Assembly: GCA_973895155.1 (NCBI GenBank)
Contig: OZ316893.1
Coordinates: 248,001 to 312,000, forward strand
Direction of reading: 5' to 3'
Length of the DNA: 64,000 bases
Source: Marsupella aquatica
Taxonomy: Eukaryota; Plantae; Marchantiophyta
In this document: positions 8,511 through 64,000 of the stretch, one piece after another
Position numbering within the stretch: the first letter of the stretch is position 1
How the letters are laid out: each line of letters opens with the position of its first letter
The notes under the pieces: model-generated
Told to the model about the DNA's origin: nothing
Databases searched by the model: none
What the model saw: the letters and a program-made list of their open reading frames with translations, nothing else
Translations under genes and position numbers: made by a program

Positions 8511-11043
8511 TGTGGTGCGTCCCATGGCTCCCCAAACCCAAGAAACCCCCCTGAACAGGCCGATTCCCGCAGGTTTTGTCCTCGGCGAGGCCGTTTCGCG
8601 GCTTAGCGGCATGGGACGCTGCTAACTTCCTTCTACTACTAGTATTAACATTTTACACACATATCCTGGACAGATCCTTCATCGGGTCATGAGATACGTA
8701 GCCGGCCTAATCTAGGCCTTCCCTTGTATTCCCCTCCTTTTCTTTAGGTATATTTGGATTCCACCGCCGGAATGATCCCCAATTGGCTTGGTTAAGCCGC
8801 TAAGACCTCTCTCAGCTCGACACATCCAACTCTCACTCCCTTGCTTACTTCCCTTCATCTATTAGTTGATGTGGGCACTCTTCACACAAGTTAATGCGAC
8901 ACACAAATAGCAAAATGACTCCTTCTGACTGAGTTATACCATGCACTTGTCATACAAACAGTACATCTCATACACAAGTTCTGCGAACTAAGCCGTGAGG
9001 CCAACTCTATTCAGCTCTTAGGCATGAGGAAACATGAATATACACAAGGGTCATTGTATAACTAACCGAGAGCTTCTCTTACTACTTGATCCCAGCCCTG
9101 CTGGTGCAACTAAAAACTTGCTAAGAAAGAGGCCCTAGACTCCTTGCTGCCCAGGTACTTATCCTGGAAGTGGATCCGCCAATTCTTAGCAGCGTAAGCT
9201 TAATCTATCCTACCTGTCATCTACCTAACTGTAATCTACCTAAGTACAGTGAGGCACGAGCACAAGTGTTGCTCCTACCAGTGGATCCGCATTCCCACTA
9301 ATCTAAGTATCAGGGCCGTCTTCTGGTCCTGATCCTCAGCCTAAACTTGGAGATCCGAGCCCGCCCTGCCCACTCACGCCTCCTACCTCCACGTCCGCCC
9401 TTTCTAAAAGGAACGGCGCCCTTGCACCGTCACGACACCGGTGGAGGATCCTCAATGGACGCCCCCAATGCTTCCCCCGTAGCCACTGCCGTCGGTCCTT
9501 CCTCTGGCAGATTACCTGCCCCGGACCGAGTCAACTCTTCATCGGCCTAACTGGGTCCACCCTCGCCTTTGGCATCAGTATCGGCCACGACCTCCCCGGC
9601 TATGGTTTCCTCGGCTGGCTCTAGTGGTGGGTTTGCTACCACGGCTTCATCAATAGTTGTCCCGGCCTCGGCCTTGCCATCCCCACCTTCCTCGATAGGG
9701 TGGATCCATTGTCGTGACCATGCTGGAGGTTGGTGCCGGGTTTACCTCCTTGGTCACAACGATTGGAGGAGCCGTATAACTCCCAGACCCAGAAGGTTTC
9801 CGCTTCTTCTTCTTCCCTGTTTCGGCAGCTAGTCCCTTCCCTTTGCCACTTACCTCCGGCACCAGGGCGTGTGTCTCGGCTTGTCCTTTTGCCAGTACCA
9901 CTCCTGGTAACGGGGTTCCCACAATTGGAGTTGGAACAGATGAAGCTAAGCACTTAAATACTGCGGCCTGTTTTGATCTTCAGCCGCTCCGTTTGGTTGT
10001 CGGCCCGCCGCTGTAAGTTCTCCATCTTCCGGGTGCTTTCCTCCAACTCCTGCAATTCATCTAGGTCCTTCCTTGCCTCCTTCAGCTCCTTCTGGGCTTC
10101 TTCCAACTCTTTCTGGGCTTCCTCTAACTCTTTCTTTAAGGTAGCCCTCTCCTCCTGGGTTGCTCTCAGCTCCTTGTCGAGCTTCGTAACGACCTCAGAC
10201 TCCATTTTATTCATCTTGGCATAAGTCTGGTCGAGCTGGTCGTCTTTCTCATGGAGGTTGGCCTTGAAGTTGGCCATCATGGATGCGAGCTCCTGCCGCA
10301 GTACGATAATCGCCTGATAGGATTTCCCTAACTCGGCCTCCTTCTGCTCTAGGGCTCCACGGATATCCTTGAGTTCCCCCTTCAACGCCCTCTCCCTTCT
10401 CTGAGTCTCCGCCATGGCCCGGTTGTTGGCTGCTATGTGGGCCTCCTCTGCATCTCTCAGCTCTCGCTTCTACTTCTCCCTATCTTTGACCGCCTCGGCC
10501 AACTCTCCTTGGGTCCGAGTCAGTTTATCCTTGATAATCTGATTATCAGACTGCGCGGTATCCAACTGCCCCTGCATGATGTTTAGCTCCAGCCGTTTAA
10601 TCCGTAGCTCATCTTGGGCTTTCTTGGCCGCCTTTAGGTCTTCCACCTCGGCTTCCATCTCCCTAAGCCGTCGGATGACCTCGTCCTTCTTGCTTCTCTC
10701 CAAAGCCATCGCTTCTTCTAATTGGTGCTTCTCCAATATCTCCCTCTGGAAAAAGGGTCCCTGCTCCAACTCCTCCCCAAAGATGCTGAGCGCAAGTTCC
10801 CCACACATCTCCCAGTACTCCATGGCTCTATCTTTAGCATAGGTGGAGTAAGTAGAAGTCATCGGCATCAACCACCTCGGCCTCTGTTCCCAAGCCGCCT
10901 TGCGGATTTCTTCTATGGTGGCAAGAGGGTTGCTTCTTTTTTTGGCAAGCCGCCTGATGTCCTCCGACCAATCTCCTCTTGGTAAATCTTTCTCCCTAGC
11001 CAGGCTGCCTTCTCTTCCTCTCTGAGTCGCTCCTGAAACTCTT
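8511..11043 (-). mobile_element. Giant coding LTR family A, copy 1 (outermost, 3' part only)
   Basis: Begins tgtggtgcgtcccatggctcc as at 11044 and 14362, and is colinear with 14362-16870. Interrupted at 11043 by copy 2. Confidence 0.9.
9548..11043 (-). pseudogene. C-terminal part of the LTR-encoded coiled-coil protein, copy 1
   Basis: ORF pieces 10470-10871, 9954-10415 and 9650-9922 match the 1121-aa ORF. TGG>TAG stop at 10470 and a frameshift near 9975. Confidence 0.85.
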
Positions 11044-12105
11044 TGTGGTGCGTCCCATGGCTCCCTAAACCCAAGAAACCCCCCAGCTCAAGCCGATTCC
11101 CGCAGGTTTTGCGCTTGGCGAGGCCATTTCCGCGGCTTAGCGGCATGGGATGCTGCTAACCTCTTCTACTATTACTATTAGCCTTTTATACACATATACT
11201 GGACAGATCCTTCATCGGGTCATGAGATACGTAGCCGGCCTAATCTAGGCCTTCCCTTGTCTTCCTCTCCTTCTGGTTAGGTATGTTTGGATTCCGCCGC
11301 CGGAATGATCCCCAATAGGCTTGGTTAAGCCGCTAAGACCTCTCTCAGCTCAACACATCCAACTCTCACTCCCTTGCTTACTTTCCTTCCTTCTGGTTGA
11401 TGTGGGCACTCTTCACACAAGTTAATGCGACACACAAATAGCAAAATGACTCCTTCCGACTGAGTCATATCATGCACTTGCCATACAAATAGTACATCTC
11501 ATACACAAGCTCTGCGAACTAAGCCGTGAGGCCAACTCTATTCAGCTCTTAGGCATGAGGAAACATGAATATACACAAGGTCACGGTATGACTAACCGAG
11601 AGCTTCTCTTACTACTTGATCCCAGCCCGGCTGGTGCAAACTAAAAACTTGCTAAAGAAGAGGCCCTGAGCTCCCCGCTGCCCAGGTACTTATCCTGGTA
11701 GTGGATCCGCCTAATTCTTTGCATCGTAAGCCTAATCTACCTAACAGTAATCTACCTGCCCGAAACTACCTATGTACAGCAAGGCAGGAGCACAAGTGTT
11801 GCTCCTACCAGTGGAACCGCAATCCCACTAAGCTAAGTGTCAGGGCCGCTCCTGGTCCTGATCCTAATCCTAAACTTGGAGATCAGCGCCCGCCCTGCCC
11901 ACTCACGCCTCCTACCTCCACGTCCGCCTTTCCTAAAAGGAACGGCGCCCTTGCACCGTCACGACACCGGTGGTGGATCCTCAATGGACGCCCCCAATGC
12001 TTCCTCCGCAACCACTGCCGTTGGTCCGTCCTCTGACAGATTACCTGCCTCTGACCGAGTCAACTTTTCGGCATGACTGGGCCCACCCTCGGCTTCGGCA
12101 TCAGC

Positions 12106-14361
12106 TCAGGAATCATTCTCAGCTACGGCCTCAGCCTCGGCTTCAGCCACTGTCTCCCCGGCGTGCTCAAGAGGTGGATCTGGGATACCGGCCTCATTAT
12201 TGAGTAGTCTGGCTTGGGCCGCGCCATCCCCACCTTTGGTGATAGCGGAATCTATTGCCGTGTTCATGCCGGAGGTTGGTGCTGGGTCTACCTCCTTGGT
12301 CACCACGGCCAGTGGAGTCGTATTACTCCTTGACCCTGAAGGTTTCCGCTTCTTCTTCTTTTCTGGTTCGGCAGCTGGTCCCTTCCCCTTCCCACTTACT
12401 TCCGTCACTGGTGCAGGTGGCGCGGCTTGTTCTTCGGCCAGTACCACTCCTGGTAACTTGGTTGCCCCAATTGGAGTTGGGCCTGATGCAGCTAAGCATT
12501 TGAATACTGCGGCTTGTTTCTTCAGCCGCTCAGTTTGGTTGTCGGCCCGCCGTTGTAGGTTCTCCATCTTCCTTGTGATTTCCTCCAACTCCTCCTGGGT
12601 CTCATCCAGGTCCTTACGTGCCTTCTCCAGCTCATTTTTGGCTTCCTCCAATTCCTTCTTGGTGGTAGCCCTCTCCTCCCGGGTTGCTCTCAGCTCCTTG
12701 TCGAGCTCCGCTACGACCTCAGACTCCATGTTATTCATCTTGGCATAAGTCTGGTCGAGCTGGGCGTCCTTCCCCCGCAGGTCGGCCTTGAAGCTGGCCG
12801 TCAGGGACGCAAGCTCCTGCTGTAGCGCAATAATCCCTTGATAGGATTTCCCTAACTCGGCCTCCTTCTGCTCAAGGACTCCGTGGATTTTCTCGAGCTC
12901 CCCCTTCAACGCCCTCTCCCTTCTCTGAGTCTCCGCCGTGACCCGGTTGTTGACTGCTATATGGGCCTCCTCTGCGTTTCTCAGCTCCTTCTTCCATTTC
13001 TCCCTGTCCTTGATTGCGTCGGCCAATTCTCCCTGGGTCTGAGTCAGTTTATCCTTGATAATCTGATTATCAGCCTACGCTGTGTCCAACTGCCCCTGCA
13101 TGATGTTCAGCTCATGCCACTTAATCCTCAGTTCATCTTGGGCTTTCTTGGCCGCCTTTAGATCTTCAATCTCGGCTTCCATCCTCCTAAGCCGCCGGAT
13201 GACCTCGTCCTTCTTGCTTCTCTTTAAAGCCACCGCTTCTTCTAATTGGTTCTTCTCCAACTGCTCCCTATGGAAAAAGGGTCCTACCTCCAACTCCTCC
13301 CCAAAGATGCTGAGCGCAAGTTCCCCACACATCTCACCATACTCCATGGCTCTATTCTTAGCGTAGGTGGAGTACATAGAAGTGATCGGCATCGCCCATC
13401 GCGGCCTCTGCTCCCAAGCCGTCTTGCGGATCTCTTCAATTGTGGCTAGAGGTTTGCTTCCTTTTTCGGCTAGCCGCCTGATGTCCTCCGGCCAATCTCC
13501 TCCTGGCAAATTCTTTTCCCTGGCCAGGGCTGCCTTCTCTTCCTGCCTGATTCGCTCCTGAAATTCCTGCCCTGTCTGTTTTATGCCGTCAAAGCTCGGG
13601 GGAGCAACATCTGGTGGGGGAGACTCAGGGCTACTCTGCTGGTTGGGGTCCCCTCGTACTACCCTTGGAAGTGTGGGGATAAACCGGCCACAGGTTCTTA
13701 CTCCTGGAACGTGATGGTCCGACCCATAGCCGGAGTTATCATGGCTGCAGTCCTCCACTGCCTCCTCTACTTCTTGGACTTCCGGCTTCTCCCTCTCTTC
13801 TTCGTCGGTAGGAGCTTCAGGCAATTCTGCCTCAGATTCAGAGCTTGAGACTCCCACGTACATTCGAACACCCGACTTGGATTCTGGCCTGATTCTGCTT
13901 AGGTTGACCTCTGGGGCAGTGTCCTGCATTGTTGCCGTTGCCGTTGTCATTGCTGATGCCGATCTCTTCTCTTTCTCCAGTAGTTTCAGCAGATTCTGCA
14001 TGCCTGGTTGCTGCATCGGCAAGTCCTCCGTCCTTGGCCTAAACACCTGCTCGATCGTAGGGCTAACAGGTGGTTGAGGCTTCTCTGCTACCGGCCTCGG
14101 TGCTGGGGCTTCCTCGGGTGCCCTTACCTGCAGGGGAAGTACTGGGGCAAAGGTCTGACCTCTGGCATACCGGCACAACAGCGGCATGTGATAGCCAAGC
14201 CGCGACACGCTCCCCATGCCGATTACCTGCTGCTCCTCCTTTAAGATCTTCTTCAATTGGTTGAGGAGGTACCCATTGTAGTCCCGGCTTGGGTCTGGCC
14301 TCTCTGCCAGATAGACCTGTGCCTTGCCGATCTCTGCCCTCGGCAAGTTACAATGCATGGT
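12106..14361 (-). pseudogene. LTR-encoded protein copy 2, C-terminal part
   Basis: ORFs 13075-14376 and 12106-13026 are near-identical to the 1121-aa protein. CAG>TAG stop at 13075. Confidence 0.9.
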
Positions 14362-15282
14362 TGTGGTGCGTCCCATGGCTCCCTAAACCCAAGAAACCCC
14401 CCAGCTCAAGCCGATTCCCGCAGGTTTCGTGCTTGGCGAGGCCGTTTCCGCGGCTTAGCGGCATGGGACGCTGCTAACCTTCTACTACTACTATTAACAT
14501 TTTACACACATATACTGGACAGATCCTTCATCGGGTCATGAGATACGTAGCCGGCCTAATATAGGCCTTCCCCTGTCTTCCCCTGTCTTCCCCTCCGTCT
14601 TGTTAGGTATGTTTGGATTCCGCCGCCAGAATGATCCCCAATAGGCTTGGTTAAGCCGCTAAGACCTCTCTCAGCTCGACACATCCAACTCTCACTCCCT
14701 TGCTTACTTTCCTTCCTTCTGTTGATGTGGGCACTCTTCACACAAGTTAATGCGACACACAAATAGCAAAATGACTCATTCTGACTGAGTCATACCATGC
14801 ACTTGCCATACAAACAGTACATCTCATACACAAGTTCTGCGAACTAAGCCGTGAGGCCAACTCTATTCAGCTCTTAGGCATGAGGAAACATGAATATACA
14901 CAAGGGTCACTGTATGACTAACCGAGAGCTTCTCGTACTACTTGATCCCAGCCCGGCTGGTGCAAACTAAAAACTTGCTAAAGAAGAGGCCCTGAGCTCC
15001 CCGCTGCCCAGGTACTTATCCTGGTAGTGGATCCGCCATTCTTTGCATCGTAAGCCTAATCTACCTGATAGTAATCTACTTGCCCGAATCTACCTATGTA
15101 CAGCAAGGCAGGAGCACAAGTGTTGCTCCTACCAGTGGAACCGCAATCCCACTAAGCTAAGTGTCAGGGCCGCTCCTGGTTCTAATCCTAATCCTAAACG
15201 TGGAGATCCGCGCCCGCCCTGCCCACTCACGCCTCCTCCCTCCACGTCCGCCCTCCCTAAAAGGAACGGCGCCCTTGCACCG

Positions 15283-18200
15283 TCACGACACCGGTGGTGG
15301 ATCCTCAATGGACGTCCCCAACACTTCCTCCTCAGCCACTGCCGTTGGCCCGCCTACTGACAGATTACCTGCCCTTGACCGAGTCAACTCTCCCTCGGCC
15401 TGACTGGGTCCACCTTCGGCTTCAGCCTCGACACTGGCCTCGGCAATACCCACGGCTTCGGCCTCAGCCACTCCCACGGCTTCGGCTTCAGCCACTCCCT
15501 CGGCTTCGGCCTCCCCTTCCCCTAGGGTAGTTGGATCCTTAGCCGTGACCCTGTCTGGGGTCGGTGCTGGGTCTACCTCCTTGATCACCACGGCCTGTGA
15601 AGTTGTATTACTCCTTGACCCTGAAGGTTTCCGCTTCTTCTTCGTTGGTGGCTCGGCAGCTGGTCCCTTCCCCTTCCCACTTACTTCCGGCACTGGTGCA
15701 GGTGGCGCGGCTTGTCCTTCGGCAATTACCACCCCTGGTAACTGGTTTGTCCCAACGGGAGATGGACCTGCTGCAGCTAAGCATTTAAATACTGCGGCTT
15801 GTTTCTTCAGCCGCTCTGTTTGGTTGTCGGCCCGCCGCTGTAGGTTCTCCATCTTCCTCGTGATTTCCTCCAACTCCTCTTGGGTTTCATCCAGGTCCTT
15901 ACGTGCCCCCTCCAGCTCGTTTTTGGCCTCCTCCTGCTCCCTGTGGGCTTCCTCCAATTCCTTCTTCAAGGTAGCCCTCTCCTCCCGGGTTGCTCTTAGC
16001 TCCTTGTCGAGCTCTGCAATGATGACAGACTCCATCTGGTTCATCTTGGCGTAAGTCTGTTCGAGCATCTCGTCCTTCTCCCTTAGGTCGGCCTTGAAGC
16101 TGGCCGTCAGGGACGCAAGCTCCTGCTGCAGCGCCATAATCCCTTGATAGGATTTCCCTAACTCGGCCTCCTTCTGCTCAAGGGCTCCACGGATTTTCTC
16201 GAGCTCCCCTTTCAACGCCCATTCCTTTCTTTGGGTCTCCGCCATGGCCTGGCTGTTGGCTGTTATGTGGGCCTCCTCTGTATTCTTCAGCTCTTGCTTC
16301 CACTTCTCCCTCTCTTTGATCGTGTCGGCCAACTCTTCCTGCGTCTGAGTCAGTTTATCCTTGATATTCTGATTATCAGCCTGCGCGGTGTCCAACTGCC
16401 CCTGCATGATGTTCAGCTCATGTCGTTTAATCCGCAGTTCATCTTGGGCTTTCTTGGCCGCCCTTAGATCTTCAATCTCGGCTTCCATCCTCCTAAGCCG
16501 CCGAATGACCTCGTCCTTCTTGCTTCTCTCTAAAGCCACCGCTTCTTCTAATTGGTTCTTCTCCAACTGCTCCCTATGGAAAAAGGGTCCTACCTCCAAC
16601 TCCTCTCCAAAGATGCCGAGCGCAAGTTCCCCACACATCTCACCATACTCCATGGCTCTATTCTTAGCGTAGGTGGAGTAAGTAGAAGTGATCGGCATCG
16701 CCCATCGTGGACTCTGCTCCCAAGCCGTCCTGCGGATCTCTTCAATCGTGGCTAGAGGTTTGCTTCCTTTTTCGGCTAGCCGCCTGATGTCCTCCGGCCA
16801 ATCCCCTCCTGGTAAATCCTTTTCCTTAGCCAGGGCGGCCTCCTCCTCCTGCTTGATTCGCTCCTGAAATTCCTGCACCGTCTGTTTTATGCCGTCGAAG
16901 CTCGGGGGAGCAACATCTGGTGGGGGAGACTCAGGGCTACTCTGCTGGTTGGGGTCCCCTCGCACTACCCTTGGAAGTGTGGGGACAAACCGGCCACAGG
17001 TCCTTACTCCTGGAACGTGATGGTCCGACCCATAGCCGGAATTATCATGGCTGCAGTCCTCCACTGCCTCCTCTACCTCTTGGACGTCCGGCTTCTCCCT
17101 CTCCTCTTCGTCGGTAGGAGCTTCAGGCAATTCTGCCTCAGATTCGGAGCTTGAGGTTCCCACGTACATTCGAACACTTGGCTTGGATTCCGGCCTGATT
17201 CTCTCCTTGTCTCCAGCAAAGGGGTTTTCTCTTGTGAGCCGGTGTAGGCCTACCTCTGTAGTAGTGTCCTGCATTGTTGCCGTTGCCGTTGTTGTTGCCG
17301 ATGCCGATTTCTTTTCTTTCTCCAGTAGTTTCAGCAGACTCTGCATGCCTGGTTGCTGCATCGGCAAGTCCTCCTTCCTGGGCCTAAACACCTGCTCGAT
17401 CGTAGGACTAACAGGTGGTTGAGGCTTCTCAGCCAACGGCCTCGGCGTTGGAGCTTCCTCGGGTGCCCTTACCTGTAGGGGAAGTACCGGGGCAAAAGTC
17501 TGACCTCTGGCATACCGGCACAACAGCGGCATGTGATAGCCAAGCCGCAACACGCTCCCCATGCCGATTACCTGCTGCTCCTCCTTTAAGATCTTCTTCA
17601 ATTGGTTGAGGAGGTACCCGTTGTAGTCCCGGCTTGGGTCTGGCCTTTCTGCCAGATAGACCTGTGCCTTGCCGATCTCTACCCTCGGCAAGTTACAATG
17701 CATGGTCACCCGCAAGAAGTCGATCATCTCTCCTATGTGCGGGTTGGTGCAGGTGTTCCGGAAGAAGCCATTCTTCGTTGATGGCCCGGGGAACGACCGG
17801 AACTCCTTGTCAGGCAAGGTCTTCCTGGTATCAACTTTGGTCTTATTGCCTATCGGCAGGCCAAACACTTCGGCAATTACCTTGGGAGTAAGATAGAAAT
17901 CCTTCCCATATATCCTCGTGCAATTGGTCTCGGGTTCCCATGACCCCACAAATTCTAATAGGTCTGACTCCGGTACCTCCGGCTTCAGCCATGGTAATCT
18001 TACAAAGGCCTCCAAGCCGGATCCAGCCATGAAGCCTTGGTACTTCTTGGTCTGCATGGCCGTAAAGCATGCATCCTCCTCCCGTGCAAAATGTAGTTGC
18101 ACCTCCACCGGTAGGGTTGCCGCCCAGCCCTTCCAGGTGTCATCCCTGGTTGGAATGGCCTTGATGGGATCGACCTCCTCCTCTTCGGCTTCTCCCTGTC

Positions 18201-18648
18201 TCCTGCTCTGCTGCTCGGCTGGCTTCTTTGGTGCCGCCGACCTCGTTCTTTTTGCCGGGGTGGCTTCATCGTTGACGGCTCCCTTCCTCTTCATCTCTGC
18301 TGCCGTGGAGGTTTCTCCTAGCACCGTTGCCTGGGTCCACCTTTCCGTGCTACCCTTTAATTCCCGGTGTATGTCGTTGCAGTTCTTGATGGCCTCTCGG
18401 ATGCCGACGACGCTGTCTTTGCAAAATAGAAGATCGTCGAGTTGATTGGAAGTAGGCGTCCACAGGAACTCGTCCTTGATGAGTTCGCCTCCTAAGAAAG
18501 CCGTCTTCTGCAGCTCCCACAATCGAGCGAGCTCCTGCTGTTCTCGAGCTGCCCTTTCTGATTCCTCGTCCTCGTAAGTCTTGATGTACTCAGTTGCCCG
18601 TTCGAACAGGCATCCCCAGAAATGTGCCGCTTGATTGACGTTGCTCAT
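15283..18648 (-). CDS. 1121-aa LTR-encoded protein: conserved N-terminus, plant-transposon-protein/PMD-like domain, acidic linker, long coiled coil, basic NLS-like tail
   Basis: Uninterrupted ATG-to-stop ORF. Motif GLEAFVRLPW..EFVGSW..IYGKDFYLTPKVIAEVFGLP is shared with four other ORFs in the window. Heptad repeats and KKKRKP are present. Confidence 0.85.
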   Translation of the reverse strand: MSNVNQAAHFWGCLFERATEYIKTYEDEESERAAREQQELARLWELQKTAFLGGELIKDEFLWTPTSNQLDDLLFCKDSVVGIREAIKNCNDIHRELKGSTERWTQATVLGETSTAAEMKRKGAVNDEATPAKRTRSAAPKKPAEQQSRRQGEAEEEEVDPIKAIPTRDDTWKGWAATLPVEVQLHFAREEDACFTAMQTKKYQGFMAGSGLEAFVRLPWLKPEVPESDLLEFVGSWEPETNCTRIYGKDFYLTPKVIAEVFGLPIGNKTKVDTRKTLPDKEFRSFPGPSTKNGFFRNTCTNPHIGEMIDFLRVTMHCNLPRVEIGKAQVYLAERPDPSRDYNGYLLNQLKKILKEEQQVIGMGSVLRLGYHMPLLCRYARGQTFAPVLPLQVRAPEEAPTPRPLAEKPQPPVSPTIEQVFRPRKEDLPMQQPGMQSLLKLLEKEKKSASATTTATATMQDTTTEVGLHRLTRENPFAGDKERIRPESKPSVRMYVGTSSSESEAELPEAPTDEEEREKPDVQEVEEAVEDCSHDNSGYGSDHHVPGVRTCGRFVPTLPRVVRGDPNQQSSPESPPPDVAPPSFDGIKQTVQEFQERIKQEEEAALAKEKDLPGGDWPEDIRRLAEKGSKPLATIEEIRRTAWEQSPRWAMPITSTYSTYAKNRAMEYGEMCGELALGIFGEELEVGPFFHREQLEKNQLEEAVALERSKKDEVIRRLRRMEAEIEDLRAAKKAQDELRIKRHELNIMQGQLDTAQADNQNIKDKLTQTQEELADTIKEREKWKQELKNTEEAHITANSQAMAETQRKEWALKGELEKIRGALEQKEAELGKSYQGIMALQQELASLTASFKADLREKDEMLEQTYAKMNQMESVIIAELDKELRATREERATLKKELEEAHREQEEAKNELEGARKDLDETQEELEEITRKMENLQRRADNQTERLKKQAAVFKCLAAAGPSPVGTNQLPGVVIAEGQAAPPAPVPEVSGKGKGPAAEPPTKKKRKPSGSRSNTTSQAVVIKEVDPAPTPDRVTAKDPTTLGEGEAEAEGVAEAEAVGVAEAEAVGIAEASVEAEAEGGPSQAEGELTRSRAGNLSVGGPTAVAEEEVLGTSIEDPPPVS

Positions 18649-18921
18649 ACCCTCCTTAGGTTGATCGTCGGTATCTACTCTCTCCCCGAGTGCTTGCCTA
18701 AGCAGCTGACAGTAGTTGGCCTCCCGTAGTCGTCTGCCTAGTTCGTGCTCGCAAATGAGCCACTATCTCCTGCAAGCGCTCCTTACCCCTCTCCTTTGCC
18801 GGTCCTTCTTCCCGTTGATCCTTCCTAGCCGCCGACGCTTAACGCGCCCTAACCCTAATCGGGTTTTCACCCTTAGCCTTACCTCCGGCCTCGGCCCGGG
18901 TTCCATGGTTGCCCCTAATTG

Positions 18922-18927
18922 TTTATA
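18922..18927 (-). promoter_or_regulatory. TATA box of LTR copy 3
   Basis: TATAAA on the minus strand, about 95 bp from the LTR 5' end and about 275 bp upstream of the ORF ATG. Confidence 0.5.
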
Positions 18928-19026
18928 TTTTCCTTGTTTTGTCACTATACTAAGGTGTTCCTAGGGTGCCTTCCTGCTTTACCCACTTAACCGGCCGAGT
19001 GATTCCTGTCTAGGCATCACAATGGT

Positions 19027-19968
19027 CACCCGCAAGAAGTCGATCATCTCTCCTATGTGCGGGTTGGTGCAGGTGTTCCGGAAGAAGCCATTCTTCGTTG
19101 ATGGCCCGGGGAACGACCGGAACTCCTTGTCAGGCAAGATCTTCCTGGTATCAACTTTGGTCTTATTACCTATCAGCAAGCCAAACACTTCGGCAATCAC
19201 CTTGGGAGTAAGATAGAAATCCTTCCCATATATCCTCGTGGAATTGTTCTCGGGTTCCCATGACCCCACGAATTCTAATAGGTCTGAATCCGGTACCTCC
19301 GGCTTCAGCCATGGTAATCTTACAAAGGCCTCTAAACCGGATCCGGCCATGAAGCCTTGGTACTTCTTGGTCTGCATGGCCGTAAAGCATGCATCCTCCT
19401 CCCGTGCAAAATGTAGTTGCACCTCCGCTGGTAGGGTTGCCGCCCAGCCCTTCCAGGTGTCATCCCTGGTTGGAATGGCATTGATGGGATCGTCCTCCTC
19501 CTCTTCGGCTTCTCCCTGCCTCCTGCTCTGTTGCTCGGCTGGCTTCCTTGGTGCCGCCGACCTCGTTCCTTTTGCCGGGGTGGCTTCATCGTTGACGGCT
19601 CCCTTCCTCTTCATCTCTGCTGCCGTGGAGGTTTCTCCTAGCACTGTTGCCGGGGTCCACCTTTCCGTGCTACCCTTCAATTCCCAGTGTATGTCGTTGC
19701 AGTTCTTGATGGCCTCTCGAATGCCGATGATTCTGTCTTCACAAAACAGAAGATCATCGAGCTGATTGGAAGTAGGAGTCCACAAGAACTCGGCGTTGAT
19801 GATTTTGCCTCCTAAGAAAGCCATCTTCTGCAGCTCCCACAATCGAGCGAGCTCCTGTCGTTCTTGAGCTGCCCTTTCTGATTCTTCGTCCTCGTAAGTC
19901 TTGATGTACTCAGTTGCCCGTTCAAATAGATATCCCCAGAAATGTGCCGCTTGATTGACGTTGCTCAT
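19027..19968 (-). pseudogene. LTR-encoded protein copy 2, N-terminal part
   Basis: MSNVNQAAHFWG... is near-identical to the first about 315 aa of the 1121-aa ORF. Broken by the copy 3 insertion. Confidence 0.92.
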
Positions 19969-19992
19969 ACCCTCCTTGAGTCGATTGTTGGT

Positions 19993-48937: not shown

Positions 48938-51529
48938 GACTCCAAATGGATTGTTGCTTCCGGATGGTTCAGTTATCGTGAAGCGTTCTATCCGTTGCTA
49001 TGATTTCGAGAGCTGTTTGGAGTGAGGGAGTTTGGAAACTCTAAAGTGGCGCGATGAGCCCCCAGGCCCGAGAAACTTTCTCCCATTGCTTCCTTCATCG
49101 TTCTGCCAGTTTCAAAGTGGCACGAGCTTCCATGTTTGGAAGGCCTGCTCTTAGCGTGAAACTGTGTCGCATCCCCATGTCCTTTGGTCAGAATGATTCC
49201 CACGGCCAAACATACACTTGTTAACTCCTAAAGATCCGGTTAGGATCCAAACGGCGGCTGAGCCATCCCCATTCGTAGGCTTTTGGTCGCTCAATGATGC
49301 CTTTGCTGCTAACGACAAAATTAAGGTGGGCGTCATGCCATGCTTACAATGAAATCGACTGGCTGAACTCGCAGCGTTGCTGCCGCTGATCCAAATCTAT
49401 GTTTCTGTCTCTCCGATGGACAGTGCTCTCACGGACTTTCTTATGCTGTGTGTCAACACCGATAGTGACCCTACGAAGATCGGACATGTTCAATGCCAGG
49501 TGAAAAATCAAAACCGGTGAAAATCAAATCAGATCGATGAAGGTTTCATAGCGTGGAAGTATGTTGGTGTTCAAATCCTCCATCCGGACTTTCGCCGGCC
49601 TGATTCTGCAGCCAACGGACAACAAGCGAGACAGCTGTGCCGACACTTCAACACGCATCCACTTGCAACCAACACCAGCACATGACTAATCGTCATGGCA
49701 GCTCCCTGCGCGTTCTTTCACACGATCGTCGCGAGGTCTGTCAATGTTTTTGCCTTGACACATCAAATTTAATTCCATTGGAAGTGACACAGTACAACAG
49801 GGTGGCCCACAAAAGGGGGACAACACCCAAAGGGAACCGGAGGACGACGTGCTAAAAACTGGGGAAGCCGGCACCATGGCAGACGAAAGGCCCCCAGAGG
49901 GTGGCAGGTAAACGAGACGTTCAACCACTGTAGACGGAGCACCACACTCCGTAAGACCGGCCAATGAAGAAGCCCCGGTGGGGAACCATCCAGTGGTCTG
50001 TCAAATTTGTTCACTTCCGTTCTCGCTTTTAGTCCGCAGGGGGTATTGGAACCTTTTGGGTCAAATGTACAGTAGTTTGGGGAAGTGTGACGCCGTTACA
50101 TTGAGGCTCCTCCCTGTCTTTGCGTATTTGGCGACTATCATGTCAGCCGTTGATCATAGCTTGTGTTCCCCTTTTGATCCTCATCTCCTACGGTCCCGCC
50201 GTTTTCTACTCATACCATGCCCTTCGCTGAATCCTATATATGTAGCGAATAGTATATTAAATAGCATGTACATCCATAAGCTGAATAAAACGTTGCATAT
50301 TGGTAGTGGACAAGACATCGTAAATAGACATTGCTCCCTGTTAAAGTGAAATTAAATGGATGTGTATGTGCTATATGATGCTATATGATGCTCCGGTTTT
50401 GAAGTGACTTGTTAGCCCCGGGCTGGGTTTCTTGTGGCCATACAGCCAAACTAAAAGTGTGTCAGATGCAGATACAGGTCCCTCCGCCTAATTTGAATAA
50501 GTAACCTGAAAGCAGATTTGCGGTCTAGCACACATTGGCCGTATGCATCATCGGTCGGAGTAAGCATGAAAACTAAGTGAATGGATGTGCATTTGTTTGG
50601 ATGGAGGACCGTGAAATGAAAGGTCCAAAATACCCGCTCGAGCGCACTTCGATGTTCCGTGGAATATCTAAGGGGGAGGGGACCGGATTTCACCAAATCC
50701 ATATTTAAGTGCTCCTAGCATTGCCTGGTACTGCCGCTGCCGCGTGTACGTATCCACAGGAGGCATCCGTGGAAATTGTTCATATTCAGGGTTGAGGGTG
50801 CATCATGCTTTGGGCCATTGCATATTCAATTTGCTCTGTCTTGTCATAACAAATGAAGGAGTAGTACCATCCTCCTTAAACAAAGGCACGGTGTACACCA
50901 GATACTCATGTATCAATTCAGAATTCCAAAATTCGGAACCCAATTTGTGGAGATGCGTGACCCTTACAAAATATGATCTTCAACAAAACAGGGGAAGTTC
51001 AGGGTTATCACAGGGGAAGTGCCGTCATCACAAAAACAAGGAGTATCGCCCTTCTGTACTTAACAGTCGTGGCCTTCAAAACGTAAGTTTTCGGAATCAT
51101 CCGGAACCCTATGGACAATATAACTTATGGGCGCTTTGTAGAGCACACGTTCTCGGGCTGAAAAACATTCGATTCTGCAATCGACCCTGAACTATCATAA
51201 AAAGGCAGGGCAAGCCTGTGAACCACACATTGTGGCACCAGCTTGGGGAAACGCGTATCTATGACGAGGCATCATCTCGAGGCGAGTGGCTTGATGCCAC
51301 TGACATGACGACGGGGTTTAGGGTTCCCCATGATGACTTTGTCCATGAACTGCTGAAAGGCAGCCTCAGGGCCAGCCAAAACATGGATGGAAGGCCACCA
51401 GCTCTTGAACATTGGAAACCCACCAGAGAGACGTTGCAAGCTTGTCTGGTAACCCCCCCCGGGCTATGTTGGATTTAGGGTCTAAAGTTGAATGTAGAAC
51501 GTCTGTAGCTGGCTTCTCCGCGTTTTCAC

Positions 51530-51574
51530 GATCCACACTCGCCTGATCCACACTCGCCTGATCCACACTCGCCT
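51530..51574. repeat. 3 x 15-bp perfect tandem repeat
   Basis: gatccacactcgcct x3. Confidence 0.95.
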
Positions 51575-52204
51575 GCGTGCCCAACAGCCTCGACAATTCC
51601 ATCACTTTACACCTCCACGCATCCCTAAAATTATGCGATCCACAGTTTGAGTGGCTCGCCCATGCCTGTCTACAAGACAACACATTGCAAAAGATGTGAA
51701 TGGATAATAATCATGAAACTGACCCTTCACGTTGTGCTGATCTGTGTGGCATTACTCGATGTTCAGTGTGTTGGAATGGAAGCGAATACCAACTCCTGAA
51801 TGAACAACTTGCTTTATATACAGGTACCAGATCCTTAGGAGATATGCTTCCCTCCCTAACGTGATTTGGTGAAAACTTAACAATGTGCCCCTACAAAGTA
51901 TAGAACAGGCCACATAAACCTCCCAGGCATTCGGTTAAAAGGCAGGGCATGATCCATGACCCTAACAAGCAATCGGTTCTATGCCAGCTGCCGAAACTCC
52001 CCTCCTGGGAATTTTGGCGACCCTGGGCCCCGATTTATCTCCTAGTCAGGCTTCCATAAACCCTAAACCCATTAGTTGCTTCAGCTGGTTTAGCTGATTT
52101 TGTGCTTGCGTTTTCAAAAGCTGATTCCGGTTGAGGAGATCTTCGCATTCCAACCCTAAAGCCTGTCTCTCTGCAGTTCCTGACATCAACTCCTCATTAG
52201 CCTT

Positions 52205-54295
52205 TTACAATTGATGTTGGAGTGCCTGGTTCTTCGATCGAAGACTTGCGACCTCTGTCTCTAACTTAGCTTGCATCTCCCCAAGTTTGGCTTCTGACTT
52301 GTTTTTGTCGGCCTCCAATTCTTTTGCGGCTAAGCCCAAGTTGTGGATCGAGTTGTCCCTTTCCTTGGCCAGGTCCTGAACTGCTCTGGCCAACTTGAGT
52401 TCCAAATCAGACACTTGCTGGTGCTTGGTATGTCGTAATTTCACCAAATTTGTGTTGGCGTCAGCGGTCGTTGCTTTCTTGGCTACCAGTTCGGCTCTAT
52501 ACCGAGTTTCGAGTATGGCTGTCTCCTGCGACACCTTACTCAATTGTATACAAACCGACTCAAGCAATTTCTTAGCTTTGGACGCCTCCTCCTCCTTCCG
52601 CCGAATTTCCTGCACGAGCTTCCGCAACTCCTCTTGTAAAAGGGGTGCAGCCTTCTCAATTGTTTGGGCTCCCTTTGGTGATTCAGCACCGGGTTGATAT
52701 TCCACAGTCGGAACCGTCTCGTATCCAATCGAGATTCTTGCGGGTGGTCCTACGGCCGGGTTATTTTCAGACTCGTCTCCGCCGTTGTTGTCAGCACAGG
52801 ATTCCGATATCGTACTTCTAGCCAGTAGAGCTAACCCCGAGGTGAATCGTCGGGAAAACAATTTCTCAACCTCATCGTCCTCGGCGTTCTGTACAGGAAC
52901 TCCCATGTCATCTCCTAGTTCTGTTTGGGACTTTGAGGTGTCGACCTCTACTGTCTGCCTTAGTGCCAGCGGCAGTGGTTTCTTACTCCACATGATAAAT
53001 GCTGGGTCCCGGCCTTCTACATCTTCTTGTCCCTTCCCTAGTCCGATTTGAGTGGGAATCTCTGCTGGCTGATGTAGTTGAGATCGAGCATGTTTTATGA
53101 TCAATGGCAAATGATAGGCCAGCCGGGAAACACCCCCAACCGACATCATTCTATGATTGGTATTCAACGCCTCCAACAATCTCTTGAAAAGAAAACCACA
53201 GTAGTCCACCCCTGTGCTGAGCTGATGTACCAATGCCACCTCATTCTTCCCAAACTCAGGCCGTCTCGGAGTAAACCACATCGTAACTCGAAGGAAATCC
53301 AGGATGTCGCGAGTCTGAATATTGATACATTCACAGCGCAAGAATCCGTTTACGTTGGGTGGTCCCTCAAAGTCCCTGCACTCGGTGTCCTTATCGTGAA
53401 CCATCCTGCCAATTTTAACCGGCTGTCCCAAGGCTAGCCCGAACACTTCGGATACCACCTTCTCTGAAAATTGGAATTCTCGACCAAATATATGCGTGAG
53501 CTTGCGCTCAGGATCCCAATTAGCTACGAACGTCATCATCTCTCTGTGGGTTATATCTTGGGCAGTCCAGGGTAACCAGACAAAATTCTCCAGCCCCGAC
53601 CCGTGTAGGAATTTGGGATACCTGCCCGAAACTACAACTCGGAATACATCGTCGTCATCCCGAATAAATTTGAGTCGAAGTTCCTCTGCTACCGTGTCAA
53701 CCCAACCCTTCCAATTCCAATCCTTTGGCGTCGATGTGGTGACCGCATCATCAATTCCTCCCGGTTCTTCCCCAGTCTCACTATTCTGACCTAGACTCGT
53801 TGGTGGCACTGTCGGTGTCTCGTTTCGTTGCGGTCGTGCTGACTCCCGACCTGCTCCACTCTTCTTTATTTTTGCCGGTGGCGCAGCGACTGCCTCTCCA
53901 TGTTTCTTCCCGCGTGCATTTGTTGCCAGCAGAGCTTGTTTCCCCTTGCTTCCTCGCCGTGAGCCTTCACCTAGCACAGCCTCTGGCGTCCACTTCAACG
54001 TCCAGCCTGGTAGTACCCACCTGTCGTCTGGACACCTATCAATCGCTCGCCTTACCGACAACAACTGATCCTCCTCAAACCAAATGCGGTTGAGTTCATC
54101 AACCGATGGTGACCATAAAAGATCCACAAAAATGCATTCCCCGCCGACGAATGCAACCTCAAGGAGCTCCCACAACTTTTGTATGAGTTGTCTCTCTTCA
54201 TCCGCTCGCTCTGGCTGCTGCTCTTCGTATGTTGCTATGAGTAGACCCCCGTACTCGAGAACACAGCCCCAATAATGTCTTGCCTGATTCACCAT
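52205..54295 (-). CDS. About 696-aa homologue of the LTR-encoded protein (start MVNQARHYWG)
   Basis: VNQARHYWGCVLE vs VNQAAHFWGCLFE; WKGWVDT vs WKGWAAT; GSGLENFVWLPW vs GSGLEAFVRLPW; SEVFGL; RLAYHLPL vs RLGYHMPL; C-terminal coiled coil. No stops. Confidence 0.8.
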   Translation of the reverse strand: MVNQARHYWGCVLEYGGLLIATYEEQQPERADEERQLIQKLWELLEVAFVGGECIFVDLLWSPSVDELNRIWFEEDQLLSVRRAIDRCPDDRWVLPGWTLKWTPEAVLGEGSRRGSKGKQALLATNARGKKHGEAVAAPPAKIKKSGAGRESARPQRNETPTVPPTSLGQNSETGEEPGGIDDAVTTSTPKDWNWKGWVDTVAEELRLKFIRDDDDVFRVVVSGRYPKFLHGSGLENFVWLPWTAQDITHREMMTFVANWDPERKLTHIFGREFQFSEKVVSEVFGLALGQPVKIGRMVHDKDTECRDFEGPPNVNGFLRCECINIQTRDILDFLRVTMWFTPRRPEFGKNEVALVHQLSTGVDYCGFLFKRLLEALNTNHRMMSVGGVSRLAYHLPLIIKHARSQLHQPAEIPTQIGLGKGQEDVEGRDPAFIMWSKKPLPLALRQTVEVDTSKSQTELGDDMGVPVQNAEDDEVEKLFSRRFTSGLALLARSTISESCADNNGGDESENNPAVGPPARISIGYETVPTVEYQPGAESPKGAQTIEKAAPLLQEELRKLVQEIRRKEEEASKAKKLLESVCIQLSKVSQETAILETRYRAELVAKKATTADANTNLVKLRHTKHQQVSDLELKLARAVQDLAKERDNSIHNLGLAAKELEADKNKSEAKLGEMQAKLETEVASLRSKNQALQHQL

Positions 54296-57200
54296 CGTTA
54301 TAGCGCGAATAAAGAATGACACCAAAGGATGGTTGAACCCTAAAAACCACGCCTCGCCTCGCCTCGCCCGCCGATAGCCTGAAAAGTGAAATGTGCGAAT
54401 GAACAGTGTTTCATATGCGTCGCCTGATGAAAGCATTGAACTACTTGAGTATGAGAGAGATGCCCCGAGCAGAATATGCGACTGAGTGTTTCTTGTTGAG
54501 TGACGCTTGTACTAAGAATTAAGTACCCTAGTACTACACGGTGATGCGGCCACCACACCCTTCGAGCTCAGTGTTCGTCGTTAGAGCGGCACTGGCACTG
54601 GTACTAATAACTACCCTACTTCTACACGGGGATGTGCCAACCCCACCCATTCGAGCTGTACGGTAGGTAGAAGCGTGAGCCTGAAGGTCGCCTGCTCTAA
54701 TTGATCAATTTACTTCAAGCGGCGAAGTTTTTGCTTCATTGGCACGCCGGGCTTTGGTGAGTGTTTAGATCCAGGGTAGAACCAGTATATATAATAGGGA
54801 TGGGCACCTTTCGTTTTCATTATCAACATAATATATATTTCAAGTCCCTATTAATATCTCTTCTGTGGCAGGCGGGTTAGGGTCGGGGTATTGTTCAGAG
54901 TTTAGGGTTTAGAACAAAACAATGTGTGAAAAAAATTTCTAAGCAGGTCAGCTTTTGTATAAGATTTGAGTTAGGTGTGTTTTTAATTAGTAGTTACAAA
55001 ATTAAGTGTGACTATAACTAAGGTAATTAAGGCCAAGATTATATAAGATTTGGGTCAGGTGTGCTTTTTATTGACTTATATCACCAATGGGAGTGGCTGG
55101 ATTTAGGTTAAGACCAAGAATTCGAGGTGTCTCAATGTTGACTTGGAATTTTCTGATCCATGAGGGCATCCCCTTTGGCATACTTATTTGCTAATTGTTT
55201 ACATGGTCATGATCGAAGAGAATTTTTCAGTGCTTCCTTAGTGGTCTCATAGTACTAAAGAGACAAAGTGCCTGGTGTGAAAAGTTTTGCTTTGTCCAGG
55301 GGTGAGGTCACCCCAACGTCACTCTCATATTACCCAATTTGGCCCAAAAGCATAGTGGACCACGAATACGTTTGCTACAGAGTGACTCAATGCAAGTAAG
55401 CAGTCAGTCCTCCGAGACAAAGGTATTCTTCTTCCATGATGGCACCACTCTTGTCAACTCAATTCCAGGTAACTCTTGGTTTTTCATCAATAACTGGAAA
55501 ATGACATTGGACATGTTGCAAAGATGGGTTTTCATCCATAGAGTTTAGGGTTTTCTGGAAACAACTACAGAGTACACTCTAGTAGTCGTGTAATTTAGTT
55601 CAGCCTTTGTGACTGACCCGCTCGGTCACAGGCCTGGTATAATACTAGCTGGGACTACTGTACTTGTCCTTTGAACGTGAATAGCGGCGAGGAGAAAATA
55701 AATGTAGACTAGAAGCTATTGTTCACGCGTACGGTCTAGAGTGAAGGCTCTAGACCATAACTCTAGGGTCAAAAAATTGCGGGTGCTGACGGAAAGTGAG
55801 GGTGAGGAGTAACACGACGTAGGGGAGCGCAAACTAGGTCAAAAGTAGCATAAATCTCAAAGTGGGCGGTGCGGCAGATCTGGCAGTGTCACACGGGAAC
55901 GCGAGGGTAGGTGCACAAGGGAGCCGATGGATATTGCGATGGCGGTGCGTGGGAAAGCACAGGAGCTACGTCCTGTGAATGCAAGGGAAGTTCCAGCTCA
56001 GTAATGATCGCTCAAATGCCATTTCATTTTTGCTTTGCTGTTTGATCGTTGTTTTGCAGATCATTGTCCTCGACAATCATCCCAGCTTGCATCCTCAACA
56101 ATCATCCCAGCAGCAAACGCAAGCTTACAGAGGAGCGGCCTTTTGATTGGAGCCCACTTTGCTTTTCATTTCCTGGTGAGACATGTAAACAAACTGACGT
56201 ATTATTTTCACTCGACTCAATCTACTTTACTGCTTGCATGTGGCAGGATGAGTGTAAGTCAAATCGAATTATTCTCGGCAAAGGTTTTGAATTCCTCCCC
56301 GCAGGTCGCTCTGGGTAGCCCTGGTCCAGGTTCGAGGTAGCAACCTCTGCTACAGATTTTCGCCTCTCCCTCTGACGACTCCCGGATCCACTCCTACTGA
56401 GGAGACCGTTGAGAGATGATTCATAAAGCTTAGCATTACTTTATGTGGAGTTCTGTGAGTGGACTGCTCATGAGATTGATCGATCGCGGAATCCTTTGCA
56501 GGTGTATGGTGCTGCGGTGAATCTTTGTCAGGGCGAAAGAACTACCTAAAGCCCTGAGTGCAAACAACACTGCGCGACTACTATTCATGGACGGTACTCT
56601 ACTGCTTCGGCACAATTGATTAGTTGTATGCAAGAGGCTTTGCTTGGAGTCCAGTAGTGCTTAGCGCTTGGCTCTCTCCGATTACAGTGACTCACATATT
56701 TCTTGTTGAACGTTTTTTTCTGTTTATAGTGATGCGATAGTCGACGTATGATCATGCAACAACCAAAATCACAGCGTCGGCAGCTAGCTTCGATACGGGA
56801 CGAGCATTTCATGCTTGATGTGAATAGTTGTATGTTCTCTCGCCCATCGTGACACGATTTGCTATCTTACTCATAAAGCGCCAACTACAAGGACGAGTTG
56901 GGGCCTAGGCTTCTAAGACCCCAACTGTAGGTTGTAGTTGGCGCTTTTATAAATGAGACATTTCAAGAGTTGGAATATGGAATACATTTTGTTTACATTT
57001 TATTGTACTCTCCTCAGGTACTGACGTTTAAAGAACGGGTAGTCGGTGCTAGTCTTAAGTAATGATGAAGCGGGTTCACGACCTAGGGTGTAGAGTTAAC
57101 CCTCGAGACCGTCATTATGGGGGCTTGTTGAACTTGGGAGCGAGGGTGTGTTCCAAGGATTGGGGGCAGGGTGAGTGTTTTGAAAACACAACGGGCTTGA

Positions 57201-59354
57201 GCGTAAATGCATTCCAAAATGCGTGAGCTGGGAAAGAGTTTGAAAATCAATACTAACGACTTGAAACCGAGTCTGTGGCCATGGTGATGAGCTTTCCAAT
57301 TCATACAACAATGTTTTCAATCGCGTCCACCAGAGACACACGTAGTACTACAAAGATCTCTTTTCGATAGATCTCAACTGCTCGAACTGAACTTAGCTAT
57401 TTAAGTTTGGGGTTCATTCTTGATTCAGCCCTGCCAATCTACTCTCCACCTCTTGCTGATGCGGTTGTGCTGTCAAATTTAGTGGGACATTGCAATGAAG
57501 TGAGGCACTTATTTTTGTTATTTGTCAATGTGGACAGGAGGAAATTCAATTGATTCACTAGGAGCTTCGATAGATTCAATTGGTTCTCTGTAGTCTGAAA
57601 TTTTAGCCTGTCCGGGAGCCCTGTCATCTAAAATCGGAGCCTCTCTTCGCTCCTTGCACTCCTCCTTCGACAAGCTTGAATGTGGATCTACTCGAATGCC
57701 CGTTCTCTCTTTTCAGCTCTTAGCTGCACGGATGGAAACTGGCGGAGTGTGCCTATTGGAGCTCATGTTTAGTATACAGCAGTAGCAAGAAAATGATCCA
57801 AGCAACAAGAGCGGGGCGGGGCGGGGCAGGGCAGGGCAGGGCCGGGCAGGGCAGGCGGCTGTAACCCATGTGGTGGTCTCCATCGGAGGCCAAATCCAGT
57901 GCTCTGTGAGAATTTTGACCGATGCCGTTTCCTCATTTTTTCCAGTTCAGCTGGGTTTTCTGGTGTTTGCATGTGCGACAAAAGGTCTGACCTTGAATCG
58001 GGTATTGGCATTGTTTTGTTGATCCTTTTACCTAGCGAGGGTTGAAAGTGGAGGGTGGATTGGATCACGGTGAGAGGCTTCGGGAGGACCCAGTGGTTGC
58101 CCAGATCCTGCTTGGATCACGGTACAACAACAGCAGGTGCAGAAGACATAGAAGAAGTAGTAGTTTTTGTTGACGAGTTCTGAATTGGATTAGGCTGAAT
58201 TAATTGCAGTGGTGATGGGCGGAACTGTGGCTCAAGTTAGTAGTACTCTCATGATTCCCGACAGTACCCTGTGATTTTGTAATCCTGTGAAAGACAAAAA
58301 TATGTCATTCACCAAGAGGCCATCTTCCAAGGAGACGACCTGGACGTGAATTTGTGTTTGGTTCTGACGAATTTGTGATTCAGCGTTGTGGAGAGAGTTT
58401 AGGGTTGTAAAATTCTTTGGAATCCATTTTGCCATGTTTTCATTTAGGGGTTAATCTGGGCCGAGGCTGATGCTGCAAGGTAGAGCAGCACAGCTGGACA
58501 TGTTCCATCGCCATCGGTGTCCCATATGCGAGAAACATTTGTTGCAGCCTGGCCAGTTGATGTTGATTCTGGCAAAAAGTGGCAGGGAATCGATTGGCAA
58601 CTACCCCAGTCCAGCCCAACTATCAGTACTCAGCAGCTTATTGCAGATAGAGAAATGGCTTCAGTATAATAAGCTTAGAAGAACAGGTTGCAGTGTTGCA
58701 CTCCTATTCAGCATGGAAAGCATGACGTGAGTCTTTTGGAGATTCCAAGTAAATGATCAAAAAGGAGCTGGGGCTCTCTTCAGCCGGACTATATATGAAG
58801 CAACCTGAAAGAATTGTTGTCTTCAGTTTCGGTTTTTTTTTTCAATCAGGTTAAATTGAAGCCAAACGTTTTTCAATTCATCGTATTGTACAACACACGA
58901 GCTATCAGATTTGGAACCTTTTAAATAACTTGGTATCATTTGCGTGAAGAAGATCAATCCAATTTTGTACAATAATCCAAACAAATTTCTGCGCGCTGTG
59001 ACGCCACCGGTACGGCGGTTAATGAGTGATTCAGTCTAACTGCGCTCGGCACGCGCGTTGGGTGGGTCTTAGGCCGCTATTATTAGCATAACGACAGTAT
59101 TTAGGTAATCATTAGGGGTAGGACATCATTAGGCAATAAGGGGGACTTCAGGTTCGGGCTGGCGGCGGGTCGCTATTCGCACACCCGGGTTACGAGCGTG
59201 GAAGGGCCCCTCCCTCGGGTCCGTATAACGAACTTAAGGAAGCGGCCACTGACGCACGCTGACTCAAACCAGCGGAGTGGCCGGTACACCACAAGCGTGA
59301 GCGGTTCAGCCTATGGGCGTCGAGGAGACGTCGGGGATCGACAAGCCCTCAAAG

Positions 59355-59361
59355 TATAAAA
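59355..59361 (+). promoter_or_regulatory. TATA box
   Basis: TATAAAA about 360 bp inside the LTR and about 100 bp upstream of the ATG at 59463. Confidence 0.6.
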
Positions 59362-59462
59362 GGGGAGCCAACCCTTTGTAGTGCACCAGTCCATCAGTCT
59401 GCGCGCCAGCTTCGACCCCAGCTCTCTCGTTCTCTCTAGGTCGCCACTACTATCTCCTCTGA

Positions 59463-62117: not shown

Positions 62118-63024
62118 CGGCGGAGTAGGAATAGATTAGGATTAGGATTGGCTTAGTCAGGCTCTTGGGACAGGCACCTGCCTTAGGTACAGCAGCGCTG
62201 CCCTGCTGTCCAGCCTGCGTAGATTAGGATCTTCTAATAAGACACAGCCGTTTTCCGGCCTGACTGTCAGCTTAGTTAGAACCTTAGTCAGCGAATCTTC
62301 GGCGAGAGGACACCCCGTCCCTCGGCCCTTAGTATTTAGTGCACCCCTCGGTAGAGGCAGGGGGGTTTTTAGTTTCAGAGTCGGACATCCGCGGGATATG
62401 CGGGGAGTCCCGACCTCTGGGAATGAAAGAGTACCAAGGGGAGGGGTAGGACTAAGCTCGCCGGGCGAGTGCGGAGCCGGGCTCCGTTGTAGTGTGCACC
62501 CTCGGCCTTGAACCTGTTCATTCTAGGGCTGTCGGGTCAACTAAGTGTACGCATATGTTCCCTTTGTAGTAAAATCCTTTCCCATCATTTTCCTTCGTGT
62601 AAATCGAGATTGTATGCATGTGTGCGCATATGTGTGTGGGTTTCTCGAATATGGGTGGCAGCGCCAGGCCGAACGCACTACCCGAGACGTGCACAGGGTG
62701 CAGCCTGCGGGTAAGTGGTTGTGAGCACGGGTTGGGGACCTGTATCATCGAATCCGGATTGAAGGCGGACACCACAAAGGCTTAGAAGCCCTTAAGCCGG
62801 GGTCGATCCTGCTATCGACTAAGGTACGTTCCGGCGGCGGAACACAAACCATACCTAGGAGGTGTCCGTATTTAGCAGTAGGCGCACTTAGCGCTAGTTT
62901 ACGAGAATAAGGTGCATTACGTGCTTCCCTTCCTGCCCGAACCCTCAGATTTACGAGGGATGTGCCCGTCTACGCTGAAGTCTGAGTTAAGGCCGAAGCC
63001 TGTGACGTGACATAGCCTTTGTTT

Positions 63025-63042
63025 TGGCGCTAGATGGAGGGG
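63025..63042 (+). promoter_or_regulatory. Primer binding site, Tat-lineage-like
   Basis: TGGCGCTAGATGGAGGGG, 94 bp before the gag ATG. Resembles the TGGCGCTAGAAGGAGGG PBS I recall from Tat/Retand elements; the priming tRNA is not determined. Confidence 0.7.
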
Positions 63043-63135: not shown

Positions 63136-64000
63136 ATGCCCGTCACTCGTTCTCAAGCAGCTTACTTGAGGAGATTGACCAGCAAACGAGAAAGTGCAAC
63201 CACAACAAGCTCCGACTCGTCGGGCTCGGAGGACTCGCAATCGTCCCGATGTATGAACATACCCCTGGGACCTTCGGGGTCCGGTTCGACCGGCCCTGCT
63301 GCGGTTCCACCACCACCACCACCACCACCTATGGCAGCCGCTCCACCGGTGGCCCGCGCTGCTCAAGCGCCTCCACAAATATCGCAACGATCGCGATTTC
63401 ATTATCGACCTTTCAAAGGGCGTCATGGGGATGATCCGGATGAATGGTTGGATGAGTTTGAAGCCACTGCTAAAGCTAATGGGGAAGACGCCATTAAGCT
63501 AATCGTCCTCCCGGGAGTGATGCGGGGAGAAGCTCGTCCATGGTACAACTCGTTACCACCTGGGACTACCTGGGCACAATTCCAAGCTGCATTGCTGCAG
63601 GAGTTTCGTGCCATTGGATCAGAACAGCGTTCTCTATTAAAGATTGGCCAGCTTCGCATGGGAAAAAAAGAGTCCCTGCGGAAGTTCATTCAAAAGTTTC
63701 AGAAACTTGCGGCCAAGATCCGGCCCAGACCAGGAGACGCACTCCAGCTTACATGGTTCCTTCATGGTTTGCCCACGAATATGCAATTATGGGTACGCCA
63801 GAATAATCCAATTTCAATGTAGGCAGCCATAGCGTGCGCCAAAACTTACCGGGAGTCCACCTATAACTCCCGGTGGAACCAGCGAGCATGCCGCAGGAAG
63901 GGTAAGTACGAAACCTTCAGTGACAGTGACTCCGAATCGGACGACGAGAGGAAGAAGAAACGCAAGAAGAAGAAGAAACATCGTTCGACCTCGTCCAGCT
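63136..64000 (+). pseudogene. gag: Retrotransposon gag (premature TAG at 63820, frame continues to the window end)
   Basis: PFKGRHGDDPDEWLDEFE..GEARPWY..TWAQFQAALLQEF..QLRMGKKESLRKFIQKFQKL..WFLHGL is a typical gypsy capsid region. Confidence 0.88.

Follow-up and report, generated by a model that had tools for sequence, protein, structure and literature searches.

A conserved accessory gene inside a very likely solo LTR of a Ty3/gypsy family from the liverwort Marsupella aquatica

A 4660-bp repeat, hereafter called U, was analyzed in a 64,000-nucleotide stretch of the Marsupella aquatica assembly (contig OZ316893.1, positions 248,001 to 312,000; hereafter the window). U is best explained as the solo LTR of a liverwort-type Ty3/gypsy element with a conserved accessory gene within its giant LTR; the product of this gene is predicted to be a DNA-binding factor of VANC/PMD fold that likely shields the element from silencing; this reading as a whole is given a probability of about 0.7. 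A mobile, high-copy, selected ORF is located inside a repeat that precedes a PBS and gag. The gene-in-LTR architecture is held with high confidence, and the solo-LTR status of U is very likely. Feature coordinates are collected in Table 1.

Table 1. Positions of U, its parts, its older copies and the related elements in the window
Feature	Positions	Strand	Basis or remark
Unit U, very likely solo LTR, 4660 bp	14362..19021	- (sense strand)	termini, TSD, contig loose ends
Left TSD ATGGT	14357..14361	.	adjoins U
Right TSD ATGGT	19022..19026	.	adjoins U
ORF P0001, 1121 aa	15283..18648	-	purifying selection
TATA-like box TATAAA, putative promoter element	18922..18927	-	95 nt from LTR start
Conserved N-terminal domain, aa 1-110	18319..18648	-	common to elements B and C; without Pfam family
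Central globular domain, aa 168-400	17449..18147	-	VANC21-like predicted fold; remote PF20167/PMD/DUF1985 group
Long predicted coiled coil, ~aa 700-960	15769..16551	-	sequence; weak coiled-coil Pfam match
Non-coding tail, 921 bp	14362..15282	-	conserved beyond synonymous sites
Copy H, older, 3' part, interrupted by U	11044..14361	-	
Copy H, 5' part, truncated at 19992	19027..19992	-	
Copy G, oldest, 3' part only, interrupted by H	8511..11043	-	
Element B, ~4.0-kb ORF-bearing 5' LTR of related family	58997..63012	+	3' end uncertain by 8 nt
B frame, 884 codons, stop at codon 12	59463..62117	+	homologous to P0001, and over its length to P0110
PBS-like motif TGGCGCTAGATGGAGGGG, not Met type	63025..63042	+	
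gag of B, stop at 63820-63822, runs off window	63136..64000	+	PF03732, E 4e-9
Element C, third family, 5' end not found	51231..54436	-	ORF-plus-tail layout as in U

U starts with TGTGGTGC and ends with GCATCACA, seven of the nine terminal bases being inverted-complementary. Such termini with a TSD are not significant by themselves: a blind scan of the window (97,892 pairs) found 111 TGT..ACA pairs bearing a 5-bp TSD where about 96 were expected, and chance therefore yields such pairs here. The boundaries of U are taken as real because they were fixed independently, by the older copy H, which U cuts precisely at the one ATGGT that the uninterrupted copy contains, and by pile-ups of contig loose ends in public runs (40 in X2, three in X3 and three in X6 at position 14362, and four in X3 at 19021). 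The TG..CA termini and 4-6-bp TSD of an LTR are thus present at independently fixed boundaries. U has no terminal direct repeats. The interrupted copy H is 89-95% identical to U and is itself nested inside copy G (84% identical). From 8511 to 19992, three generations of the same LTR are nested on one strand, each within the ORF of its predecessor, and contig joints in X2 indicate further insertions of U ends at other positions of U itself; insertion preference or mere abundance may explain this self-nesting. G in turn interrupts an ORF at 7849-8510 (+) that has no Pfam match and that looks like a LINE ORF1 fragment.

The layout of U consists of 373 bp 5' of the ORF, the ORF itself and 921 bp 3' of it, with 72% of the unit coding. 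P0001 matched none of the Pfam families for gag, RT or integrase. A sequence-only reading had described just such a unit, with TG..CA ends, a perfect 5-bp TSD, a TATA box, one intact ORF of about 3.4 kb, about 0.9 kb of 3' sequence and no gag, RT or integrase, and this description was borne out throughout. Upstream, the P0001 frame runs on for 86 codons as far as an ATG at 18906; a stop interposed at 18763-18765 is absent from 97-100% of the contig depth in all four runs. Judged from sequence, the 1121-aa ORF is probably complete, because the ATG at 18906 sits only 21 nt behind TATAAA and because alignments with related proteins begin at the residue corresponding to the ATG at 18648; the N-terminal domains of U and B align from the first residues of U (hhalign probability 68%, E 5e-5). 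The predicted coiled coil is followed by a patch of basic residues, KKKRK, at aa 1003. The non-coding tail contains TGTA motifs clustered at about 14808-14900 and ends in a hairpin spanning its last ~110 nt.

U or part of it was found in 13 of the 15 runs listed, six of which contained at least half of its words; none is recorded as RNA. Contigs were aligned to the window from four public runs (14,704, 25,294, 559 and 78 contigs, respectively). Averaged over two runs, depth was of the same order across the tail, the ORF and the 5' end, which indicates that the ORF is part of the ordinary U unit. A comparison of dN/dS among copies, proposed from the sequence alone, gave 0.34 for U-H (1090 codons) and 0.37 for U-G (515 codons), indicative of purifying selection, with values of 0.21-0.27 in the domains and near neutrality in the C-terminal tail of the protein. 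The non-coding tail diverged by 3.6% between U and H, against a dS of 0.17, and by 7.7% between U and G, against a dS of 0.39; it diverges less than synonymous sites and thus carries constrained signals. Three of the four best-defined copies in the window are broken, G and H being interrupted and stop-bearing and B having a stop both at codon 12 and within gag. Many of the solo copies are thus no functional cassettes. The earlier proposal that a solo LTR would leave a complete cassette behind fits the placement of the gene within the repeat, but fails for these three copies.

The order of parts around the ORF was apparent in element B, where a TGTGACGCC start at 58997 is followed by TATAAA, the 884-codon frame (27% identical to the U ORF over 228 aa, E 3e-17), a 0.9-kb tail ending in GTGACA at 63012, the PBS-like motif and a gag of Ty3/gypsy type, with a weak Ty3_capsid match besides PF03732. 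The tRNA matching this PBS is presumably Asn. The motif differs from the Met-type PBS at 26005, which belongs to a Ty1/copia remnant (22886-26005, -; gag PF14223). In the aligned contigs the single-copy flank stops at 58996 and the ORF-bearing 4 kb of B is deep; over gag the summed contig depth, which is no copy number, drops 4.0 to 7.4-fold in all four runs. This is the pattern that an LTR with numerous solo copies gives, and family B is the only one for which the repeat was seen to be commoner than the internal region. Past the 3' end of U, the majority line of the 40 loose ends in X2 coincides by eye and in register with the B PBS region (18 of 21 positions), which suggests that some U copies adjoin a primer site of this kind. 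The corresponding lines in X3 and in X6 are mixed and uninformative, the four loose ends on the 5' side of U in X3 are mixed, and the 3' flanks of all three U copies within the window are non-PBS. No pol was found within the 64-kb window, and no polypurine tract was seen for B or U in the aligned contigs of the public runs. The PBS-like line and the LTR-ORF-PBS-gag order of B with its depth step support the interpretation of U, first made from the letters of the window, as a solo LTR that is about 70% coding. In element C the ORF is 37% identical over aa 1-393, and a 0.97-kb tail ends at a TGTGG terminus; this tail (51231-52204) contains five telomere-like CCCTAAA words, exceeding all 200 shuffles, and a 15-bp triple repeat. 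A remnant at 2918-3458 (+) is 70% identical to the tail of the family B LTR (62320-62854).

These observations weigh against three other accounts of the repeat. That U is a stand-alone mobile unit outside any LTR retrotransposon, either of DNA type or integrase-mobilized with TG..CA ends, would suit its short inverted ends and the non-PBS 3' flanks of the three window copies, but is very improbable given that the unit contains no transposase or integrase, that PBS-like loose ends occur and that B is joined to a PBS and gag with a depth step. Hardly credible is an internal ORF like Ogre ORF1, with short true LTRs and U as an internally deleted element: PMD-coiled-coil ORFs upstream of gag are described for Tat lineage IV in a part of PMC4408406, but U has no terminal direct repeats, and in B the PBS comes after the ORF, whose region is several times deeper than gag. 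Finally, U could be the LTR of a non-autonomous (LARD-like) family with an ORF in its LTR and no working gag-pol inside, mobilized by a partner, for instance family B. Although a PBS-like flank is all that was seen of the interior of the U family, we consider this unlikely, since the sister family B has gag behind a PBS of the same type and since purifying selection and high copy number suit an active lineage.

The predicted fold of the central domain is shared with VANC21 (PDB 9LNJ) at 9-10% identity. This DNA-bound anti-silencing protein is the sole structural match and spans the whole domain. PF10536 (PMD) matched neither the window proteins nor 100 homologues, and no window protein had a Pfam match above cut-off to PMD, PF20167 or DUF1985; PF20167 matched four of the 100 homologues below cut-off (E 1.6e-7 to 0.006). 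Atlas neighbours of one homologue include PMD and DUF1985 clusters (0.85), a lead only. The link to PMD suggested by the sequence-only reading is thus absent at the Pfam level and persists as the VANC21 fold match and the weak PF20167 matches. Ten of 30 homologue representatives are annotated liverwort proteins, either with no function stated or with only a DDE_Tnp_4 label, and ORFs of this kind may pass for host genes in annotations. In a count of exact words over seven regions, no 7- or 8-mer was over-represented in the U or H tails. Two broken ORFs, at 20530-21869 (+) and 48193-48771 (-), align weakly with the central domain (19% and 13%); a terminus and TSD scan of the window did not find their ends. 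Elsewhere in the window, a degenerate tandem array with an 18-19-bp unit occupies 35527-36160, and an AT-rich 438-aa ORF (26473-27789, -) has a weak Tet-like 2OG-FeII_Oxy_6 match (E 0.06) and no PDB sequence match. Its C-terminal pattern seems to us to resemble 2OG-Fe(II) dioxygenases, and it is possibly a TET/JBP-like gene in a transposon-rich plant region.

Genes inside LTRs are found in retroviruses, for example MMTV sag, which is duplicated with the LTR; relative to U, its LTR and ORF are much shorter, its carrier is an animal retrovirus and its protein is unrelated. In plants, the extra ORFs described in PMC7264820 and in parts of PMC6317226, PMC4408406 and PMC11728184 are internal: they either precede gag or follow pol ahead of the 3' LTR. 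The sequence-only reading had likewise placed them between the LTRs. The same four sources, in part, report plant LTRs of up to about 5 kb and do not there describe them as coding. Moss Tat-like elements and lineages I and II are without extra ORFs (PMC4408406, in part). Phrase searches of the literature returned no report of this coding-LTR layout, and it is not mentioned in the portions available of the liverwort genome papers PMC12885004, PMC13182070 and PMC9985172. Features held in common with the non-chromovirus OTA Ty3/gypsy elements (Athila, Tat/Ogre/Retand) are the TG..CA ends, 5-bp TSD, non-Met PBS, LTRs of up to ~5 kb and an accessory ORF that combines a PMD/PF20167-type domain with a coiled coil and a basic patch. 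Unlike in those elements, where the extra ORF is internal, the ORF here precedes the PBS within the repeated unit, takes up 66-72% of that unit and is retained when a solo LTR forms. By analogy, U appears to work like an OTA-type Ty3/gypsy element with a PMD/VANC-group accessory protein, its ORF position departing from the described lineages. P0001 resembles VANC of the VANDAL (Mutator-like) DNA transposons (9LNJ; PMC5735166) in its predicted central fold, its predicted coiled coil and its status as a transposon-encoded accessory; it differs in its 9-10% identity, LTR retrotransposon carrier and liverwort host, in that no tandem target motifs were found and in that its activity is predicted. 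VANC is described as dicot-specific (PMC13547354). The plant mobile domain proteins MAIN/MAIL1 and Gypsy PMD-A (PMC5418596; bioRxiv 2024.09.27.615353) belong to the same structural group via VANC/DUF1985; the difference is that PF10536 was not matched here.

A reading that we regard as possible, but do not favour, keeps the LTR architecture and takes the protein for an accessory with a structural or targeting task (import into the nucleus, binding to particles or to the chromosome axis, choice of site) that merely keeps the PMD/VANC fold. It is consistent with a fold match at so low an identity, with tails that show no target-motif array where examined, with MAIN/MAIL1, which share the fold and promote TE silencing (PMC5418596), and with ATLANTYS accessory domains, which resemble meiotic ASY2 (PMC13547354). 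Repeated same-strand self-nesting in the window and X2 joints could mean targeting, but abundance alone also predicts it; the only structural match, moreover, is an anti-silencing protein bound to DNA, aligned over the entire domain, and the domain-plus-coiled-coil layout parallels VANC21. For anti-silencing, the tentative model has the central domain binding DNA and the coiled coil oligomerizing, with the protein acting in trans on copies of the family.

Under the preferred reading of U as a solo LTR with its own gene, a complete element would have two identical LTRs and hence two gene copies. LTR-LTR recombination, reported to increase with LTR length (part of PMC7251063), would remove gag-pol and keep promoter, ORF and 3' signals together, and solo copies would exceed complete ones, as suggested by the B depth ratio of 4-7 against 2 for complete elements alone. 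PF20167 occurs in an Athila-like 3' sense ORF (PMC11728184, in part). We somewhat favour an origin from such a sense ORF, located after pol and ahead of the 3' LTR, which would have joined U3 once plus-strand priming shifted upstream of it, the 0.9-kb tail being the ancestral LTR; this shift would be the simplest route. Alternatively, the ORF may lie within a very long R/U5 that follows the 5' TATA box.

What extra ORFs do for plant LTR retrotransposons has yet to be settled (PMC7264820; PMC4408406, in part). The U family offers a structural lead on this question, the VANC21-like fold, and its layout makes the question testable, as the gene and its likely target are in one repeat. The meaning of a solo LTR also changes, because recombination would leave a whole gene. 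It is conceivable, though doubtful at present, that a liverwort Ty3/gypsy lineage moved a VANC-like gene into its LTR and that every LTR, solo copies included, is a trans-acting counter-defence cassette. If so, the host's main route for deleting retrotransposons would multiply the gene that sustains the family relative to complete elements.
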